Assembly (NCBI RefSeq): GCF_964213995.1
Contig: NC_135819.1
Coordinates: forward strand, 66,712,001 to 66,776,000
Reading direction: 5' to 3'
Length of the DNA: 64,000 nt
From: Mustelus asterias
Lineage: Eukaryota
The position numbers were made by a program, and so were the translations under genes. The notes under the pieces are model-generated. The model worked only from the letters and a program-made list of their open reading frames with translations, did no database searches and had not been told where the DNA came from. Positions within the stretch are counted from its first letter, which is position 1. Every line of letters begins with the position of its first letter. Shown one piece after another: positions 7,218 to 37,336 of the stretch.

Positions 7218-10200
7218 ATAAGAACATAAGAACATAAGAAATAGGAGCAGGAGTAGGCCATCTAGCCCCTCGAGCCTGCCCCGCCATTCAATAAGATCAT
7301 GGCTGATCTGACGTGGATCAGTACCACTTACCCGCCTGATCCCCATAACCCTTAATTCCCTTACCGATCAGGAATCCATCCATCCGCATTTTAAACATAT
7401 TCAGCGAGGTAGCCTCCACCACCTCAGTGGGCAGAGAATTCCAGAGATTCACCACCCTCTGGGAGAAGAAGTTCCTCCTCAACTCTGTCTTAAACCGACC
7501 CCCCTTTATTTTGAGGCTGTGTCCTCTAGTTTTAACTTCCTTACTAAGTGGAAAGAATCTCTCCGCCTCCACCCTATCCAGCCCCCGCATTATCTTATAA
7601 GTCTCCATAAGATCCCCCCTCATCCTTCTAAACTCCAACGAGTACAAACCCAATCTCTTCAGCCTCTCCTCATAATCCAAACCCCTCATCTCCGGTATCA
7701 ACCTGGTGAACCTTCTCTGCACTCCCTCCAATGCCAATATATCCTTCCTCATATAAGGGGACCAATACTGCACACAGTATTCCAGCTGCGGCCTCACCAA
7801 TGCCCTGTACAGGTGCATCAAGACATCCCTGCTTTTATATTCTATCCCCCTCGCAATATAGGCCAACATCCCATTTGCCTTCTTGATCACCTGTTGTACC
7901 TGCAGACTGGGCTTTTGCGTCTCATGCACAAGGACCCCCAGGTCCCTTTGCACGGTAGCATGTTTTAATTTGTTTCCATTGAGATAGTAATCCCATTTGT
8001 TATTATTTCCTCCAAAGTGTATAACCTCGCATTTATCAACGTTATACTCCATTTGCCATATCCTCGCCCACTCACTCAGCCTGTCCAAATCTCTCTGCAG
8101 ATCTTCTCCGTCCTCCACACGATTCACTTTTCCACTCATCTTTGTGTCGTCTGCAAACTTCGTTACCCTACACTCCGTCCCCTCCTCCAGATCATCTATA
8201 TAAATGGTAAATAGTTGCGGCCCGAGTACCGATCCCTGCGGCACGCCACTAGTTACCTTCCTCCAACCGGAAAAACACCCATTTATTCCGACTCTTTGCT
8301 TCCTGTCGGATAGCCAGTCCCCAATCCACTTTAACACACTACCCCCAACTCCGTGTGCCCTAATCTTCTTCAGCAGCCTTTTATGGGGCACCTTATCAAA
8401 CGCCTTTTGGAAATCCAAAAACACCGCATCCACCGGTTCTCCTCCATCAACCGCCCTAGTCACATCTTCATAAAAATCCAACATGTTCGTCAAGCACGAC
8501 TTTCCCCTCATGAATACATGCTGCGTCTGATTGATCGAACCATTTCTATCCAGATGCCCTGCTATCTCCTCTTTAATAATGGATTCCAGCATTTTCCCTA
8601 CTACAGACGTTAAGCTGACCGGCCTATAGTTACCCGCCTTTTGTCTCCTTCCTTTTTTAAACAGCGGCGTAACATTAGCCATTTTCCAATCAACTGGCAC
8701 TACCTCAGAATGCAACGAGTTTTGATAAATAATCACTAACGCATCCACTATTACCTCTGACATTTCTTTCAATACCCTGGGATGCATTCCATCCGGACCC
8801 GGGGACCTTCAGTCCCATTAGCCTACCCAGCACTGCCTCTCTGGTAACATTAATTGTATTAAGTATTTCTCCTGCTGCCAACCCTCTATCGTTAATATTT
8901 GGCAAACTATTTGTGTCCTCCACCGTGAAGACCGACACAAAAAACTTATTTAAAGACTCAGCCATATCCTCATTTCCCACTATTAACTCCCCCCTCTCGT
9001 CCTCCAAGGGTCCAACATTCACTCTAGCCACTCTATTCCTTTTTATATATTTATAAAAACTTTTACTATCATTTTTTATATTAATTGCTAGCCTAGCTTC
9101 ATAGTCTATCCTTCCTTTCTTTATCGCTTTCTTAGTCTCTCTTTGTTGTTTCTTAAATTTTTCCCAATCACTTGTTTCTCCACTATTTTTGGCCACTCTG
9201 TACGCAGCTGTTTTTATTTTAATACTCTCCTTTATTTCCTTCGTTATCCACGGCTGGTTCTCCCTTTTCTTACAATCCTTGTTTTTTGCTGGAATATATT
9301 TTTGCTGAGAACTGAAAAGGATCTCCTTAAAAATCCTCCACTGTTCCTCAGCTATCCTACCTGCCAGCCTGCTCTCCCAGTCTACCTTAGCCAATTCATC
9401 CCTCATCCTATCATATTTCCCTCTGTTCAAACAGAGGACACTGGTTTGGGACCAAACTTTCTCCTCTTCCATCTGAATCAGAAATTCGACCATATTGTGG
9501 TCACTAGACCCAAGAGGGTCCTTCACAATAAGATCCTTAATTCTACCTACCTCGTTACACAATACCAGATCCAAAATAGCTCGTTCCCTCGTCGGTTCCG
9601 TAACATGCTGTTCAAGGAAACTATCCCGACAGCATTCTAAGAACTCTTCCTCCATTCCACCCTTACCGACTTGAGTCTGCCAGTCAATGTGCATGTTGAA
9701 GTCCCCCATGATTATTGCCGTTCCGTTTTTACATGCATCCCTTATCTGCTTGTTTATAGCCCTCCCTACCTCAACATTATTATTTGGGGGCCTATATAAC
9801 ACACCTACTAGTGTCTTTCTCCCTCTACTATTCCTCATCTCTACCCATAATGATTCCACGTTTTGTTCCTCAGAGCCTATGTCATCCCTCAGTACTACCC
9901 TGATATTATCTCTTATTAATAGCGCGACCCCACCACCTTTTCCTTCCTGTCTATTCTTCCTAAACGCCTGATACCCCTGGATATTCATCTCCCAGTCCTG
10001 GTCACCTTTCAGCCACGTTTCTGTACTGGCCACTAGATCGTACTCACTTGTGCTGATTTGCACCATCAACTCATTTACCTTGTTCCGAATGCTTCGTGCA
10101 TTCAGGCAAAGTGTCCTTATTCCAGCTTTTATCTGGACCCGCTTTGATGAGTCGCGAACACCCTCTCCCTCTACTCCCTTATCTAAATTACCGCCTTCAT

Positions 10201-10276
10201 TCACTTGCACCCTCTCCTCTACCATTAATTTTGTAATTCCCCTTACCCCTGCATCCTCCCCCCCATCAATTAGTTC
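7218..10276 (-). mobile_element. Young CR1 LINE with near-complete ORF2 (APE endonuclease + RT), one frameshift at ~8805, truncated at the ORF1/ORF2 junction
   Basis: ORF 8705-10339 has CLNARS, TETW, GDFN and SDH; ORF 7318-8787 has GVPQGSVLGP and KFADD; (ttcttatg)n tail. Confidence 0.96.
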
Positions 10277-10443
10277 CTTGATGATGGATGACCAACAGAT
10301 GCAGCTGATTGGTGAGTAAGTCCTGGTAGGTATTTCCAAACCATATTAAATTGTATGTCATTATTTAAGCAAGGGTAGGAAATTATTTGATTTATTTCTT
10401 TTTTTAAGTCTTATAAAGTTTTTAAACTTAAAAGGGTTTAGTC

Positions 10444-11690: not shown

Positions 11691-12064
11691 GCCGCAAGAG
11701 GAAGAATAGAGCAGCTGAATACATGGCTGGAGAGATGTTGTAGGAAGGAGAGGGGGATTTGGATTTGAGGCATTGGGGCCAATTTTGTGGAAGATGGGAC
11801 CTGGACAAGTTACACCCAGCAGGACCTGACCAATATTCTCCTAGCAATTTTTACAAGTGCTGTTTGGGAGGATTTAAGCTAGAGTGGCAGGGAGATGGGA
11901 ACCCAAGCAGGTAGACAAAAGAAAGGGAAACAAGTTAGAAATAAAAGAGGAGACAAAGGCTAGGGCAATAGTATAAAAATGTTAAAAAGACAAATCTAAA
12001 GAGAATATCTGAATGAATGCAGCATTCACAATAAGGTAGATCAGTGGTGGGCAGCCTAGAACCT

Positions 12065-22671: not shown

Positions 22672-24491
22672 GGGTACTTGCTAGAGTGGTTGGGGAGCTT
22701 TTAAACCAATATGGCAGGGGGATGGGAACCTTTGCAAGGATTCAGGGCAGGGGAAATTAAGAACAAGAAGAAAAGACAGAAAGGAGAATAAGGAAAGTGA
22801 TAGGCAGAGAAATCAAGGGCCAGCGTCAGATAACGACAGAGTAAAAAATAGTAGGAACTGGAAACGAAATGTTAAAAGTGCCCACCTTAAGGTTTTGTAC
22901 CTGAATGCTCGGAGCATTTGAAACAAATTGGATGAATTAGTTGCACAGATAAATGTAAAGGGGTATGATATAGTTGGCATTACGGAGACGTGGCTCCAAG
23001 GTGAGCAAGGATGGGAACTAAAAATTGAGGGCTATTCAGTGTTTAGGTTACTACTGATTGGAGGGTAGCTAATGTAAGCCCGCTATTCAAAGAGGGAGAT
23101 AGAGAGAAAACAGTGAACTATAGTCGGTACTGGGAAGTTGCTAGAGTCCATTATCAATGATTACATAACTCAGCATTTGGAAGGCAGTGGTATAATCAAA
23201 CAAAGTCAGCATAGATTTACTATGGGGAAACCATGCTTGACAAATTATTGGAACTTTTGGAGGATGGAACTAGTAGAGTTGACAGGAGAACCAGTGGATG
23301 TAGTTTATTTGGGCTTTCGACAAGGTCTCACATAGACTACTATATAAAGTTAAAGCACATGGGATTGCAGGTAATGTCTTGAGATGGATAGAAAGCTGGT
23401 TAGCAGATAGGAAGCAAAGATTTGGCATAAATGGGTTTTTTTTTGATTGGTAGTCAGTGACTAACGGGGTTCTGCAGGAATGTGCGTTGGGACCCAAACA
23501 GTTCACATTATATATTAATGATTTGGAAGAGGGAACTAAATGTATTATCTCCAAATTTGCAAATGATACAAAGATGGGTGGGATGGTGAGCTATGAGGAG
23601 GATGCAGAGATGCTTCAGCATGATTTGGACCAGCTGAGTTTGTGGATATGTTGGCATATGCATGGCAGATGCAGTACAATGTGGATAAATGTGAGGTTAT
23701 CCACTTTGGTAGCAATAATAGGACGACAGATTATTACTTCAATTATTGTAAATTGAGAGGTGGATACTCAGTGAGACCTTGGTGGCCTCATGCATCAGTC
23801 GCTGAAAGTAAGTGCACAGGTACAACAGGCAGTAAGAAAAGCAAATGGTATGTTGGCCTTCATAGTGAAAGGATTTGAGTATAGGAATAGGGAAGTTTTG
23901 CTGCAATCGTATAAGGCATTGGTGAGGACACACCTGGACTACTGTATGCAGTTTTGGTGTCCTTATCTGAGGAAGGATGTCCTTGCTATAGAGGAAGTAC
24001 AGCAAAGGTTTGTCAGGCTGATTCCTGGGATGGCAGGTTTGTCATATGAGGAGAGACTGAGTCGGTTAGGATTATATTCACTGGAGTTTAGAAGAGTAAG
24101 AGGGGAATCTCATAGAAACCTACAAAATTTTAACAGGGTTAAACAGGGTAGATTCAGAAAGAATGTTCCCAATGATGGGGGAGTCCATAACTGGGGGTCA
24201 TAGTTTGAGGATAAGGGGTAAACCTTTTAGAACTGAGGCGAGGAGAAACTTCTTCACCCAGAGAGGGTGGTGAATGTGTGGAATTCACTGTCACAGAAAG
24301 TAGTTGAGGCCAAAACATTGTATGATTTCAAGAAGAAATTAGATATTGCTTTTGGGGCTAAAGGGATATGGGGCAAAGGGGGGATCAGGATATTGAATTT
24401 GATGATCAGCCATGATCAAAACATATGGTGGAGCAGGCCTGAAGGGCTAAATGGCCTATTCCTGCTTCTAGTTTTTATATTTCTATGTTTC
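22672..24491 (+). mobile_element. Internally deleted CR1 (ORF1/ORF2 junction, start of endonuclease, RT, 3' tail)
   Basis: YLNARS and TETW, then a jump to RT (KFANDTK, LDYCMQFWCP); tttctatgttt tail. Confidence 0.88.
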
Positions 24492-32492: not shown

Positions 32493-32888
32493 ATACCCTT
32501 TTCTGCCACATGATGGCGCTCTGGACCAGATGATTTCACTCTGCTAGAATTGAGTTTTAATCCTTTGTTAGCCTGTTTTTTTTTGTGTCGGTCTTTGTCT
32601 ATGTGTAACCATGTCTTGCGCCGGTTGGCAGGATAGAACAGATCCCCTCTTTGATCATGGAGAATTCATTAGGGAAAGCACATGAGCCTCCTCCTAAGAG
32701 AACGTCCTTGGTTTTTTAAAGGCCGTATTTTAATAGTTCCGACTCCTAACGTTCATTTGGCATAGGATTTATAGCACGGTACAGGAACCTGATAAGGATG
32801 TATTATAGAACAAAGAACAAACAAAGAACAGTACAGCACAGGAAACAGGCCCTTCGGCCCTCCAAGCCTGTGCCGCTCCTTGGTCCAA

Positions 32889-35805
32889 CTAGACCAATCG
32901 TTTGTATCCCTCCATTCCCAGGCTGCTCATGTGACTATCCAGGTAAGTCTTAAACGATGTCAGCGTGCCTGCCTCCACCACCCTACTTGGCAGCGCATTC
33001 CAGGCCCCCACCACCCTCTGTGTAAAAAACGTCCCTCTGATGTCTGAGTTATACTTCGCCCCTCTCAGCTTGAGCCCGTGACCCCTCGTGATCGTCACCT
33101 CCGACCTGGGAAAAAGCTTCCCACTGTTCACCCTATCTATACCCTTCATAATCTTGTATACCTCTATTAGATCTCCCCTCATTCTCCGTCTTTCCAAGGA
33201 GAACAACCCCAGTCTACCCAATCTCTCCTCATAGCTAAGACCCTCCATACCAGGCAACATCCTGGTAAACCTTCTCTGCACTCTCTCCAATGCCTCCACG
33301 TCCTTCTGGTAGTGCGGCGACCAGAACTGGACGCAAATGCGGCCTAACCAGCGTTCTATACAGCTGCATCATCAGACTCCAGCTTTTATACTCTATACCC
33401 CGTCCTATAAAGGCAAGCATACCATATGCCTTCTTCACCACCTTCTCCACCTGTGTTGCCACCTTCAAGGATTTGTGGACTTGCACACCTAGGTCCCTCT
33501 GTGTTTCTATACTCCTGATGACTCTGCCATTTATTGCATAACTCCTCCCTACATTATTTCTTCCAAAATGCATCACTTCGCATTTATCCGGATTAAATTC
33601 CATCTGCCACCTCTCCGCCCAATTTTCCAGCCTATCTATATCCTGCTGTATTGCCCGACAATGCTCTTCGCTATCCGCAATTCCAGCCATCTTTGTGTCA
33701 TCCGCAAACTTGCTGATTACACCAGTTACACCTTCTTCCAAATCATTTATATATATCACAAATAGCAGAGGTCCCAGTACAGAGCCCTGCGGAACACCAC
33801 TGGTCACAGACCTCCAGCCAGAAAAAGACCCTTCGACCACTACCCTCTGTCTCCTATGGCCAAGCCAGTTCTCCACCCATCGAGCCACTTCTCCTTGTAT
33901 CCCATGAGCCTTAACCTTCTTAACCAACCTGCCATGTGGGACTTTGTCAAATGCCTTACTGAAATCCATATAGACGACATCCACGGCCCTTCCTTCATCA
34001 ACCGTTTTTGTCACTTCCTCAAAAAACTCCACCAAATTTGTAAGGCACGACCTCCCTCTTACAAAACCATGCTGTCTGTCACTAATGAGATTGTTCCGTT
34101 CTAAATGCACATACATCCTGTCTCTAAGAATCCTCTCCAACAACTTCCCTACCACGGACGTCAAGCTCACCGGCCTATAATTTCCTGGGTTATCCCTGCT
34201 ACCCTTCTTAAACAACGGGACCACATTCGCTATCCTCCAATCCTCAGGGACCTCACCTGTGGCCAAAGAAGCGACAAAGATTTCCGTCAGAGGCCCAGCA
34301 ATTTCCTCTCTCGTCTCCCTGAGCAGTCGAGGATAGATGCCATCAGGCCCTGGGGCTTTGTCAGTTTTAATGTTCCCTAAAAAACCTAACACTTCCTCTC
34401 TTGTAATGGAGATTTTCTCTAACGGGTCAACACCTCCCTCCGAGACACTCCCGGTTAACACGCCCCTCTCCTTCGTGAATACCGATGCAAAGTATTCATT
34501 TAGGATCTCCCCTATTCCCTTGGGTTCTAAGCATAATTCCCCTCCTTTGTCCCTGAGAGGTCCGATTTTCTCCCTGACAACTCTTTTGTTCCTAACGTAT
34601 GAATAGAATGCCTTAGGATTCTCCTTAATCCTGCCTGCCAAGAACATCTCGTGCCCTCTTTTTGCCCTTCTAACTCCCCGTTTGAGATCTTTCCTACTCT
34701 CTCTGTATTCCTCCAGAGCTCCATCTGTTTTCAGTTGCCTGGACTTAACGTATGCCTCCCTTTTCATTTTAATCAGATCCTCAATTTCCCTGGTTATCCA
34801 CGGCTCTCGAATCCTACCTTTCCTATCTTTCCTTTTTACAGGCACATGCCTATCCTGCAGCCTTATCAATAGTTCCTTAAAAGACTCCCACATGCCAGAT
34901 GCGGACTTACCCTCGAACATCCTCTCCCAATCAACATCCACCAATTCCTGCCTAATCCGGCTATAGTCAGCCTTCCCCCAATTTAGAACCCTGCCCGTAG
35001 GACAGCACTCATCCTTGTCCATTACTATCCTAAAGTTAACAGAGTTGTGGTCACTATTTGCCACATGTTCCCCTACCGAAACTTTGACGACCTGACCGGG
35101 CTCATTTCCCAGAACTAGGTCCAGTATAGCCCCCTCTCTAGTCGGGCTATCTACATACTGTTCCAAGGAACCTTCCAGTACGCATTTTACAAATTCCTCC
35201 CCGTCCGGTCCCCCAGCTCTAAGCACTTTCCAGTCTGTGCCAGGGAAATTAAAGTCCCCCACTACAACAACCCTATTTTTTCTGCACCTATCCAGAATCT
35301 CCTGACATATCCTTTCCTCCACTTCCCGTGGGCTGTTGGGTGGTCTGTAGTACACCCCCAGCATAGTGACTGCACCCTTCCTGTTTCTGAGTTCCACCCA
35401 CAGCGACTCAGTACATGACCCCTCTAAGTTGTCTACCCTCTGCACTGCGGTAATATGCTCCTTAACTAATATCGCTACTCCCCCACCTTTTTTAGCCCCT
35501 CCTCTGTCTCGCCTAAAACACTGATACCCCGGAATATTCAGCTGCCAGTCCTGTCCTTCTTTTAACCAAGTTTCCGTCACCGCAACCACATCCAAATTCC
35601 GCACAAGCATTAAGGCCCTAAGTTCGTCTGTTTTACCCGTTACACTCCTCGCATTGAAGTAGATGCACTCCAGACCTCCAGGCCCAGTCAGATCCTCCTC
35701 CTCCAGAGTGCTCCTCTTCTTAGCTAGCCTTGCCCTGGCCCCCAGCTCGACCCCAGCCTCAGTATTTACTGACCTCCTGTTTTGTTCCCCACCCCCCTGC
35801 CACAC
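32889..35805 (-). CDS. CR1 ORF2 (APE endonuclease + reverse transcriptase), frameshifted near 33335
   Basis: YFNARS, VTETW, GDFNFP, SDHN, GVPQGSVLGP and KFADDTK; the C-terminus continues in ORF 32889-33299. Confidence 0.93.
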
Positions 35806-36833
35806 TAGTTTAAATCCTGCCGAAACACTCGAGCAAAACTCCCAGCCAGGATATTTGCTCCCTTCCAGTTAAGGTGTAACCCATCCTTTCTGTACAGTTG
35901 CCATCCTGACTTGAAGATTTCCCAGTTATCTATGAATTTAAAACCCTCCCTCTTGCACCAGTCCTTTAGCCACGCGTTCAACTGTAGAATCTCCCTGTTC
36001 CGAGCCTCACTTGCACTAGGCACCGGGAGCAGTCCAGAGATTGCTACACTGGAGGTCTTACTTTTTAGCCTAGCACCCAACTCCCTGAATTTCTCTCGTA
36101 TGACCCCCCTGCTCTTCCTACCTACATCATTTCCCCCAATGTGTACAATCACATCCGTTTGACTACCTTCCTTTTTAAATATGCTTCCTACCCTCTCGGA
36201 GACATTCAGTACCCCGGCACCAGGGAGGCAGACTACCATCCTGGATTCTCGTTCAGTCCCACAGAAGCGCCTGTCCGTGCCTCTAACTATTGCGTCCCCC
36301 ACAACTATCGCTCTCCTAAACCCCTTCTTTCCCTTCCGGACCCCTGAGCCTGTCTCCGTGGAGGCGATCTGGTCCTCGTGGCTTACCCCTGGAGGGTCAT
36401 CCCCCTCCACAGAATCCAAAACAATATACCTATTGTGGAGGGGGACAACCACAGGGGATCCCTCCACAGACTGCTCACTCCCTTCCCTTCTCCCATCTGT
36501 TGCCCATCCCTTTCTCTTATGGGAGACTGCCACTGGGGTGCTTTCTGGCACATCACCCTTCTGACTATTACCCCTCCTAACCGTGACCCACGTGTCTTCC
36601 TTCCGAGACCCTGGTGTCACTACCTGACTATAACTTTTATCTATGACTCTCTCATTTTCCCTAACTAAACTGAGTTCATCGAGCCTCAGCTCCAGCTCCC
36701 TTACACGATCCTTCAGGAGATGCAGTTCCACACATCTGGCACAGATATGGACTTCCGGGAGGCAAGTTGTCTCCAGGAACTCCCACATCCCACACCGAAT
36801 GCAGTATACTGGCCTCCCACTCATACCAGCCAT
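35805..36833 (-). CDS. CR1 ORF1: zinc finger, coiled coil and SGNH esterase-like domain
   Basis: CIRC...CARC, heptad LKDRVRELELRLDEL, blocks GDAIVR / CLPGA / HIGGND / DGLHLN; probable start MAGMSG. Confidence 0.92.
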   Translation of the reverse strand: MAGMSGRPVYCIRCGMWEFLETTCLPEVHICARCVELHLLKDRVRELELRLDELSLVRENERVIDKSYSQVVTPGSRKEDTWVTVRRGNSQKGDVPESTPVAVSHKRKGWATDGRREGSEQSVEGSPVVVPLHNRYIVLDSVEGDDPPGVSHEDQIASTETGSGVRKGKKGFRRAIVVGDAIVRGTDRRFCGTERESRMVVCLPGAGVLNVSERVGSIFKKEGSQTDVIVHIGGNDVGRKSRGVIREKFRELGARLKSKTSSVAISGLLPVPSASEARNREILQLNAWLKDWCKREGFKFIDNWEIFKSGWQLYRKDGLHLNWKGANILAGSFARVFRQDLN

Positions 36834-37336
36834 GTCCTTTTTAGTTTTGGGGATAAAACAAAAAGGGGGTGTAACCAAAGAAAAACAAACAAACAACCTT
36901 CCTCGCCGAAGCCCTGTGAGCCAAAGCCCTTTTAGCTCTCACTCTGTCCCCTGCTCACTCCACTGCCCGCTAACGACGCTGCCCGCTCAAAGGTGCGGCC
37001 TACTTTTAAACCCTCCAAAATCTTCCCAGGCTGCTGCTGGGCCTATTTCCTGTTTAGAAAAAAAACCTCCGTTTTTTTTCACTAATTTAACTGAAAAATA
37101 ATTAAATAAATTAGTGCACAAACAAGCTCCCTTACCCTCAGCCTGCTCCTGTGGAACAATGAGGCTGAAACCTCCAAGTTAAGCACTTTTAAACCCTCCA
37201 AAATCTTCCCAGGCTGCTGCTGGGCCTATTTCCTGTTTAGAAAAAAAACCTCCGTTTTTTTTCACTAATTTAACTGAAAAATAATTAAATAAATTAGTGC
37301 ACAAACAAGCTCCCTGACCCTCAGCCTGCTCATTAT

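Follow-up and report, generated by a model that had tools for sequence, protein, structure and literature searches.

CR1 elements in the window and their ORF1-ORF2 junctions

We examined a 64,000-nucleotide stretch of the Mustelus asterias genome (contig NC_135819.1; hereafter the window), which carries a young esterase-type CR1 LINE on its reverse (-) strand. ORF1 (35805..36833, - strand) encodes a protein of 342 aa with an N-terminal Cys motif, an SGNH esterase domain and a C-terminal end reading ...RQDLN*. It matches Lipase_GDSL_2 (E 3e-11) and the "ORF1-encoded protein" of PDB 4c1b (E 3.8e-25), and the catalytic GDS of the esterase is replaced by GDA in this CR1 family. ORF2 (32889..35814, - strand) encodes an APE endonuclease (EN) and a reverse transcriptase (RT), with a frame break near 33.3 kb in its C-terminal part, and the element ends in a GTTCTTT-type 3' microsatellite tail with no poly-A (32807..32829, - strand). 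The SGNH esterase ORF1, the APE and RT ORF2, the microsatellite tail and variable 5' truncation fit an esterase-type canonical CR1 LINE.

The codons at the ORF1 end read GAT TTA AAC TAG. As the initial annotation stated, this sets U_UUA_AAC, the coronavirus-type slippery heptamer, in exact X_XXY_YYZ register (35808..35814, - strand) and directly before the stop (TAG, 35805..35807, - strand; TAG, TAA or TGA in other families). The -1 frame, which starts FKLVWQGG..., is open from 35868 to 33235 with EN and RT inside, and is closed upstream by a TAA (35869..35871, - strand) 18 codons above the heptamer. An AUG-free linker of 51 codons (35662..35814, - strand) leads from the heptamer to the endonuclease motif YFNARS (35644..35661, - strand), and the first in-frame ATG of ORF2 (35610-35608) lies downstream of that motif, in agreement with the earlier claim that ORF2 has no AUG before it. 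A G-run, GGGGGG-T-GGGG, begins 10 nt 3' of the heptamer (35787..35797, - strand) and is a candidate linear stimulator. The G-rich tract had been placed 6 nt after the heptamer; G-rich sequence ("ggcagg...") does begin there, while the conserved run of at least four G begins at 10 nt.

Three further copies in the window bear on the junction. TTTAAAC in a second family (22700..22730, + strand) and TTTAAGC TAG in an old family (11873..11900, + strand) are both real, as annotated, and both junctions are decayed. In the former, which retains a G-run, the stop is now CAA; both families normally carry TTTAAACTAR, relatives of the latter being mostly TTTAAACTAG. A copy of a fourth family (7321..10285, - strand) begins inside the ORF2 linker and lacks the slippery site because 5' truncation removed it. 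The AACTAA near 10273, taken for a residual site, was misidentified: it sits within the ORF2 linker, 17 codons (51 nt) in, and fuller copies of this family (L072, L073, L076-L079) carry TTTAAACTAG upstream of it.

Conservation of the slippery heptamer

The heptamer per se is not enriched in the window (20 observed versus 14 +/- 4 expected); its significance lies in its position at ORF1 stops and not in its abundance. We compared 16 family representatives from the same genome; the DGLHL esterase motif had led to 12 of them, and a pattern containing the heptamer to the other 4. Representatives were chosen partly for intact frames, and the families are related, so counts across them are not independent events. 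The synonymous-site comparison proposed in the initial annotation gave a uniform result: Leu is always TTA and Asn always AAC (16/16 each), and the codon at -3, which encodes seven different residues, ends in T in 16/16. Nearby conserved Leu and Asn codons vary in spelling among the same representatives, TTA makes up 11/72 Leu codons in ORF2 of the window copy, and the ORF1 stop itself is TAG in 8, TAA in 7 and TGA in 1. Judged by this codon spelling, the heptamer is under nucleotide-level constraint.

A random sample of 140 x 10 kb contained 16 ORF1 ends, 15 of them reaching the junction; 13 of these had TTTAAAC followed by a stop and 2 were one base off. Genome-wide exact counts, which required N5-CAGGGGG behind the heptamer, gave 11,387 sites for TTTAAAC (control 1), 313 for the non-slippery VTTAAAC and 125 for CTN-AAY (control 22), so that no sizeable family with that downstream motif uses those non-slippery spellings. 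At the protein level, 54/102 ORF1 cluster representatives with short tails (25-39 aa) end in LN, and 48/102 have another C-terminus. Residues whose codons cannot end in U (E, Q, K, M or W) occupy -3 in 1/54 versus a background of 13% (p 0.005, with rows that are not independent).

ORF2 has no conserved start codon

The EN motif follows in the -1 frame after 37-122 codons in 17/20 representatives, with 14 different lengths, and is absent from that frame in 3/20. Within the linkers there are 3 stops in the -1 frame versus 56 and 84 in the other two frames. No Met occurs in 9/17 linkers, and in the remaining 8/17 it is scattered at positions 13-74; among young copies of the window family, 30/30 lack a linker Met. 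The -1 frame is closed 1-5 codons above the heptamer in 12/16 family representatives, and the codon over the stop varies (GTG, ATT, AAT, GAT, GAA, ATA, AAG, GCA, GTT, GGT). On these frame comparisons, an essential downstream ORF is open in the -1 frame without a conserved start of its own.

Junctions in distant relatives

Named ORF1 homologs come from sharks, rays, coelacanth, frogs and a turtle. In more distant relatives, with 33-36% identity in ORF1 and 29-33% in ORF2, TTTAAAC TAG is present at 6/9 loci that reach the junction, and the other 3 are one base off. Four distant loci have AUG-free open linkers to CLNARS, and the G-run 10 nt downstream is also kept in those relatives with heptamer and stop. 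A distant ORF1 clade, taken from a quick tree, ends in xGN, where x is Q in 15 of 20 rows, A in 2, and V, K and S in one each. Every one of these residues can be encoded by NNG, and at the level of protein sequence these ends would fit a second canonical site, G_GGA_AAC. The DNA of this clade was not found; 13 pattern matches had no esterase, EN or RT match.

Sixteen weaker loci (L274-L289) were rejected as relatives, as they have no junction and look like other esterases. Viral and prokaryotic collections, scanned for relatives of vertebrate type, yielded nothing of use, and a weak search of longer proteins for in-frame fused relatives scored none in 300 candidates. In two gene models, P0031 and P0045, the junction is read through as ...GFKL..., which may stem from annotation fixes or indel copies. 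Four contig sets that we presumed to be RNA, and that may be DNA, each include a contig that crosses the junction ungapped with no joint. We count neither observation as evidence.

Candidate stimulators

U_UUA_AAC normally needs a structured stimulator. We found no conserved hairpin downstream: RNAalifold, run on ungapped, heptamer-anchored rows, found no base pairs in any of four spans, and folding z averaged 0.03 across 20 sites (0.2-0.7 for the window copy), with tools that omit pseudoknots. Only individual families have a predicted hairpin (z -2.2 at 22707, -3.2 in L044). A general G-quadruplex was rejected, since the three-tier pattern occurs in only 3/20 and the two-tier pattern in 6/20; G4Hunter scores 1.84 in the window copy versus 0.84-1.0 in the distant group. 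When the window element was scanned for duplex partners of its G-run, without a control or conservation test, all partners were imperfect.

The G-run starts at 10 nt in 16/20 (including 4 that had been selected with a pattern in which the run occurs), at 8 nt in 3 and at 6 nt in 1, and its Gly codons are GGG in 37/51 versus 30/87 in ORF2. Given that hairpins are not conserved and quadruplexes not widespread, we consider the linear G-run, the stop or the two together the probable stimulator. This is the least certain part of our explanation. The signal had been called canonical; that description holds for the heptamer, its register and the open -1 ORF, and fails for a conserved hairpin or a general G-quadruplex.

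A proposed model of -1 frameshifting and its alternatives

We consider it quite likely, from the sequence comparisons above, that esterase-type CR1 LINEs make ORF2 by -1 programmed frameshifting, yielding an ORF1-ORF2 fusion. The invariant slippery spelling, the -1 continuity and the lack of a conserved start all favor the fusion predicted in the initial annotation. Most ribosomes would stop at UAR and release ORF1p. In a minority, tRNA-Leu and tRNA-Asn on UUA and AAC would slip to UUU and AAA, and these ribosomes would read ...DLN-LVWQG... into ORF2, for a product of about 1,300 aa laid out as ORF1, linker, endonuclease and RT. We take the junction peptide from a tandem slip to be QDLN-LVWQG, and the usual alternative to be QDLK-LVWQG rather than the proposed QDFK. 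The shift would set a ratio like that of gag to gag-pol and tie the RT to an ORF1 particle. The linear G-run would be the likeliest stimulator, perhaps acting through a bound protein by analogy with the C-rich motif in PRRSV, and slow decoding of the stop may help it.

The main rival is AUG-independent reinitiation, as in L1. More broadly, ribosomes could reinitiate near the ORF1 stop, coupled to it, at an AUG (UAAUG) or at any codon, and make a separate ORF2p, with the conserved bases serving termination or reinitiation. Reinitiation is the mode described for LINEs in PMC3708506, PMC3894237 and PMC5009743, and the stop stands at the very start of the open in-frame linker; an open linker lacking AUG is just as compatible with AUG-independent reinitiation. 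SART1, with its UAAUG coupling, and mammalian L1, whose ORF2 initiation is AUG-independent, resemble CR1 in having a bicistronic RNA and low ORF2 output linked to the ORF1 stop. Both produce ORF2p as a separate protein through reinitiation, whereas in CR1 overlapping UAAUG occurs at only 670/11,387 sites; these sites, and the UAGUG (not UAAUG) of the window copy, can be counted in favor of coupling, but UAAUG is missing at 94% of counted sites. A TURBS-like UGGGA was rejected, being found within 90 nt upstream in 7/20 at scattered, non-conserved positions. Reinitiation does not explain why exactly the seven X_XXY_YYZ bases stay fixed when the stop and the codon after it do not, and we regard it as unlikely.

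We give still less credence to the idea that the heptamer reflects a protein need (Leu-Asn at the esterase C-terminus, FKL..QG in ORF2) or an RNA signal unrelated to translation, with ORF2 made from a downstream AUG or a spliced or subgenomic RNA; this seems very improbable. LN is indeed conserved at the protein level, but the synonymous positions are fixed as well, and with tails of 25-39 aa LN tracks the stop and not the esterase fold. A CAG|G resembling a splice acceptor is present in many families, yet CAG is missing in 6/16 own-genome representatives. The Met in 8/17 linkers could offer a start, but 30/30 young copies have none, and the first in-frame AUG of the window family would cut off YFNARS. 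Two further readings were rejected: a U12-type micro-intron of 47 nt (ATATCCT to TTTAAAC) joining the frames is too short, has no branch point and lacks ATATCCT in several families, and transcriptional slippage in the G-run cannot join the frames because the run lies after the stop.

Discussion

The family in the window has the same esterase ORF1 and APE and RT ORF2 as the esterase-ORF1 vertebrate CR1 elements described previously (PMC13343379; the ZfL2-1 esterase, PMC3905857, PDB 4c1b), and shares their microsatellite tail, 5' truncation and high abundance; the window family differs in having GDA where the catalytic GDS would stand. According to PMC13343379, chondrichthyan L2s have no ORF1. 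The word "frameshift" is absent from PMC13343379 and PMC3905857, and the available portions of both give no translation mechanism for CR1 ORF2. We found no report of CR1 frameshifting in the literature, and an earlier mention is possible in the papers of 1997 on CR1 of chicken and turtle, in Kapitonov and Jurka 2003, in Alisch 2006 or in Repbase notes. The production of ORF2 from bicistronic LINE RNAs is called an open question in two reviews (PMC3894237, PMC3708506). For the Dictyostelium elements TRE5-A and TRE3-A, a figure legend in PMC5911963 states that ORF2 depends on a -1 frameshift; they are APE-type LINEs like CR1, of a different clade and with a different ORF1.

Coronavirus ORF1a/1b and retroviral gag-pol share with CR1 the X_XXY_YYZ heptamer, an enzyme ORF in the -1 frame and a predicted fixed ratio. 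Unlike those sites, CR1 conserves neither a hairpin nor a pseudoknot stem 5-9 nt downstream, and its stop immediately follows the heptamer. CR1 is also a non-LTR retrotransposon in which, unlike the viral systems, we saw no protease to free the enzyme. The PRRSV nsp2 frameshift is trans-activated by nsp1beta and PCBP through CCCANCUCC, located 11 nt downstream of where the shift occurs (PMC5009743), a short linear motif at a distance similar to that of the CR1 G-run (10 nt). That motif is C-rich and follows a different heptamer, whereas the CR1 run is G-rich and its binding protein is putative.

Taken together, these observations allow a wider reading, which we offer tentatively and think rather more doubtful than probable. 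The LINE clade that dominates in most vertebrates, together with distant relatives of invertebrate type, may long have relied on -1 frameshifting of the retroviral kind to produce a fusion of esterase, endonuclease and RT. An unstructured G-run would be recognized by a protein of the host or of the element, possibly by ORF1p itself in a feedback loop, and U_UUA_AAC would have been exchanged for G_GGA_AAC in distant clades. If so, CR1 would present a -1 frameshift that is cellular, under protein control and repeated more than ten thousand times per genome.

CR1-group elements make up 22-34% of shark and ray genomes (PMC13343379). If -1 frameshifting is true of them, ORF2 annotation across the clade would become that of a fusion rather than a free protein, and a membrane-binding esterase would be carried on the RT. 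It would also offer a mechanism for setting the ORF1:ORF2 ratio and provide a natural frameshift site, with a signal of about 30 nt, whose stimulator is something other than folded RNA.

The ORF1/ORF2 junction of the window copy

The window holds, on its minus strand, a CR1 element whose ORF1 (342 aa, ATG at 36833) is an SGNH esterase protein by Pfam and by a match to PDB 4c1b (E 3.8e-25); its nearest named homologues come from sharks and rays. The initial annotation had placed a slippery heptamer in exact register at the end of this ORF, and the window sequence reads as claimed: ...CAG GAT TTA AAC TAG TGT GGC AGG GGG GTG GGG..., with TTTAAAC at 35814-35808 and the TAG stop at 35807-35805. Coronaviruses use the heptamer U_UUA_AAC. 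From 35868 to 33235 (minus strand) the -1 frame has no stop and codes for the endonuclease and RT. ORF2 indeed has no AUG ahead of the endonuclease motif, as proposed: YFNARS lies 51 codons from the heptamer and the first -1-frame ATG 68 codons in. The junction is identical among the best 30 matching copies fetched, and none of these (0/30) has a Met in the linker, the -1-frame stretch between heptamer and endonuclease motif. Taken alone, TTTAAAC shows no enrichment across the window (20 observed vs 14 +/- 4 expected).

The 5' UTR of the element is a tandem array with units of ~150 nt (36850-37330, minus strand). GDA(I) replaces the catalytic GDS of other families (~36310-36295, minus strand) in 22 of the 23 young-family copies with the motif read (L001-L030; unread in 7). 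The family is a recently spreading CR1 whose esterase is probably inactive.

Junctions also proposed at 22700 and 11873 proved to be decayed sites of older families, other copies of which mostly carry TTTAAACTAR. The "residual AACTAA" proposed near 10273 is a misidentification: in six more complete copies of its family, TTTAAACTAG lies 17 codons upstream of that point, and the truncation of the window copy falls within the linker. The in-frame AUG raised as a caveat for this family is real, a Met at linker codon 35.

Selection on the heptamer spelling

To sample junctions, we searched 140 evenly spaced 10-kb stretches with DGLHL, a motif of the esterase, as the anchor in place of the heptamer. 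Of 16 ORF1 ends, 15 extend to the junction and 13 of these have TTTAAAC plus a stop; the other two are one with a T deleted and one with TCTAAAC. Across all 124 fetched loci, mostly selected by similarity to junction-containing queries, 101 match; the remaining 23 belong to old families and differ by a single base, or lie beyond the 60-nt window.

We then compared 16 family representatives, one copy per family (12 DGLHL-anchored, 4 from a heptamer-containing pattern), selected partly for intact frames. Ungapped, they share on average 59% identity in the 45 nt preceding the heptamer and 34% between +30 and +90. The synonymous-site conservation suggested as a check is complete: the residue at codon -3 may be G, D, V, A, N, S or T, yet the last base of this codon is T in 16/16, and Leu is TTA and Asn AAC in 16/16. 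Neighbouring conserved Leu codons are mixed (CTG, CTT, TTG, TTA, CTA), and the stop is TAG in 8, TAA in 7 and TGA in 1. Genome-wide (3.68 Gb), exact counts requiring TRR-N5-CAGGGGG after the spelling gave 11,387 for TTTAAAC, 313 for VTTAAAC and 125 for CTN-AAY (control 22); the two non-slippery spellings are at decay level. Because families are related, these tallies are not independent events. The junction pattern is real and far beyond chance.

A synonymous T 18 nt upstream of the heptamer is also invariant (16/16 representatives). It usually opens a -1-frame TAG/TAA five codons above the heptamer, and the Phe preceding it is TTT in 11/11. Its role may be that of a further conserved signal or of protection against premature slips.

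Depth of conservation

A C-terminal LN occurs in ORF1 homologues named from sharks, rays, coelacanth, frogs and a turtle. Among 150 cluster representatives, 106 have a DGLHL-type motif, 102 of those with a short tail, and 54 of the 102 end in LN. Tails vary from 25 to 39 aa; therefore LN tracks the stop, not the fold. Residues whose codons cannot end in U make up 13% of the tail and occupy -3 in 1/54 LN proteins (p 0.005, with non-independent rows). Metagenome contigs supplied DNA for a distant group (ORF1 33-36%, ORF2 29-33% identity to the window). Nine of its 13 loci extend to the junction, with TTTAAAC TAG in 6 and a one-base difference in 3. In four (L261, L262, L264, L270), the junction is followed by N5-CAGGGGGGAT, with 37-42 AUG-free codons up to CLNARS.

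In a quick tree, a further clade ends xGN (x = Q 15, A 2, V 1, K 1, S 1; 20 rows). Every x residue can be coded as NNG, mirroring the LN group. As a lead, this clade, known here from proteins alone, would have the canonical site G_GGA_AAC. Its neighbours end SKN, xEN, GFF/RFF or GFL, and these endings could reflect further slippery heptamers. The observations on the clade and its neighbours come from proteins P0133, P0134, P0137, P0150, P0163, P0177, P0185, P0201, P0215 and P0236-P0254. Other ORF1 clades among the cluster representatives have neither an LN nor an xGN end.

Database entries for three CR1 ORF1 proteins (P0019, P0076, P0064) give Pseudomonas aeruginosa, a gammaproteobacterial MAG and a parasite of frogs as their sources; host DNA contamination of those assemblies is the probable cause. 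Ray gene models named RPS24, hydroxyacid oxidase 2 and TMEM204 isoforms (P0027, P0045, P0065, P0066) include CR1 ORF1 sequence, as either exonisation or annotation artefacts.

Candidate stimulator and precedents

RNAalifold found no shared base pairs at the junctions, and single folds gave a mean z of 0.03. Three-tier quadruplex patterns occur in 3/20 representatives and two-tier patterns in 6/20; the G4Hunter score is 1.84 in the window copy, above the ORF2 maximum of 1.6, and 0.84-1.0 in the distant group. A conserved run of at least 4 G starts 10 nt after the heptamer in 16/20, 8 nt in 3/20 and 6 nt in 1/20, and Gly is GGG in 37/51 codons in the run vs 30/87 in ORF2. In some copies (L164, L172, L256 and others), the run has grown to >20 G, shifting their linker frame. 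In the portion of PMC5009743 covered (first 300,000 characters, "CR1" 0 times), a C-rich motif 11 nt 3' of the PRRSV shift site acts via bound proteins, and natural quadruplex stimulators are stated as not known. The CR1 G-run distance, mostly 10 nt, resembles that of the PRRSV motif. Because there is no shared fold, quadruplex patterns are in a minority and the G-run is conserved at a PRRSV-like distance, we infer that the stimulator would be the G-run with a protein bound to it, the stop next to the heptamer, or the two together.

A full-text literature search, including parts of PMC11835228, PMC4255032, PMC5006619, PMC3708506, PMC3905857 and PMC3894237, found no report of CR1 frameshifting; "frameshift" and "slippery" each occur 0 times in the portion covered of a 2026 CR1 survey (PMC13343379). 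The 1997 chicken/turtle CR1 papers and Repbase notes may mention overlap. TRE5-A and TRE3-A "require a -1 frameshift", according to an excerpt of PMC5911963. Frameshifting of this class is already known; no publication was found that describes it across CR1 with a stimulator that seems unstructured.

Entry into ORF2

The -1 frame reaches the endonuclease motif in 17/20 representatives, through linkers of 37-122 codons with 14 different lengths. These 17 linkers contain 3 stops in the -1 frame vs 56 and 84 in the other frames; Met is absent from 9 and present in 8, where it falls between positions 13 and 74. Upstream, a stop closes the -1 frame within 1-5 codons of the heptamer in 12/16 own-genome representatives. 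Given open linkers, scattered or no Met and a -1 frame closed just upstream, ORF2 is therefore entered at or just past the junction. Such entry is compatible with frameshifting and is equally expected if reinitiation coupled to the ORF1 stop supplies ORF2, a rival that is still live but that we regard as unlikely. It is the invariance of the heptamer that favours frameshifting, since there is free variation in the codon over the stop and UAAUG is present at 670/11,387 sites. On the sequence evidence, the junction is most likely a -1 programmed frameshift. In at least one family within the genome-wide exact-site set, the UAAUG stop-start and the heptamer are combined, and such a family could use both frameshifting and reinitiation.
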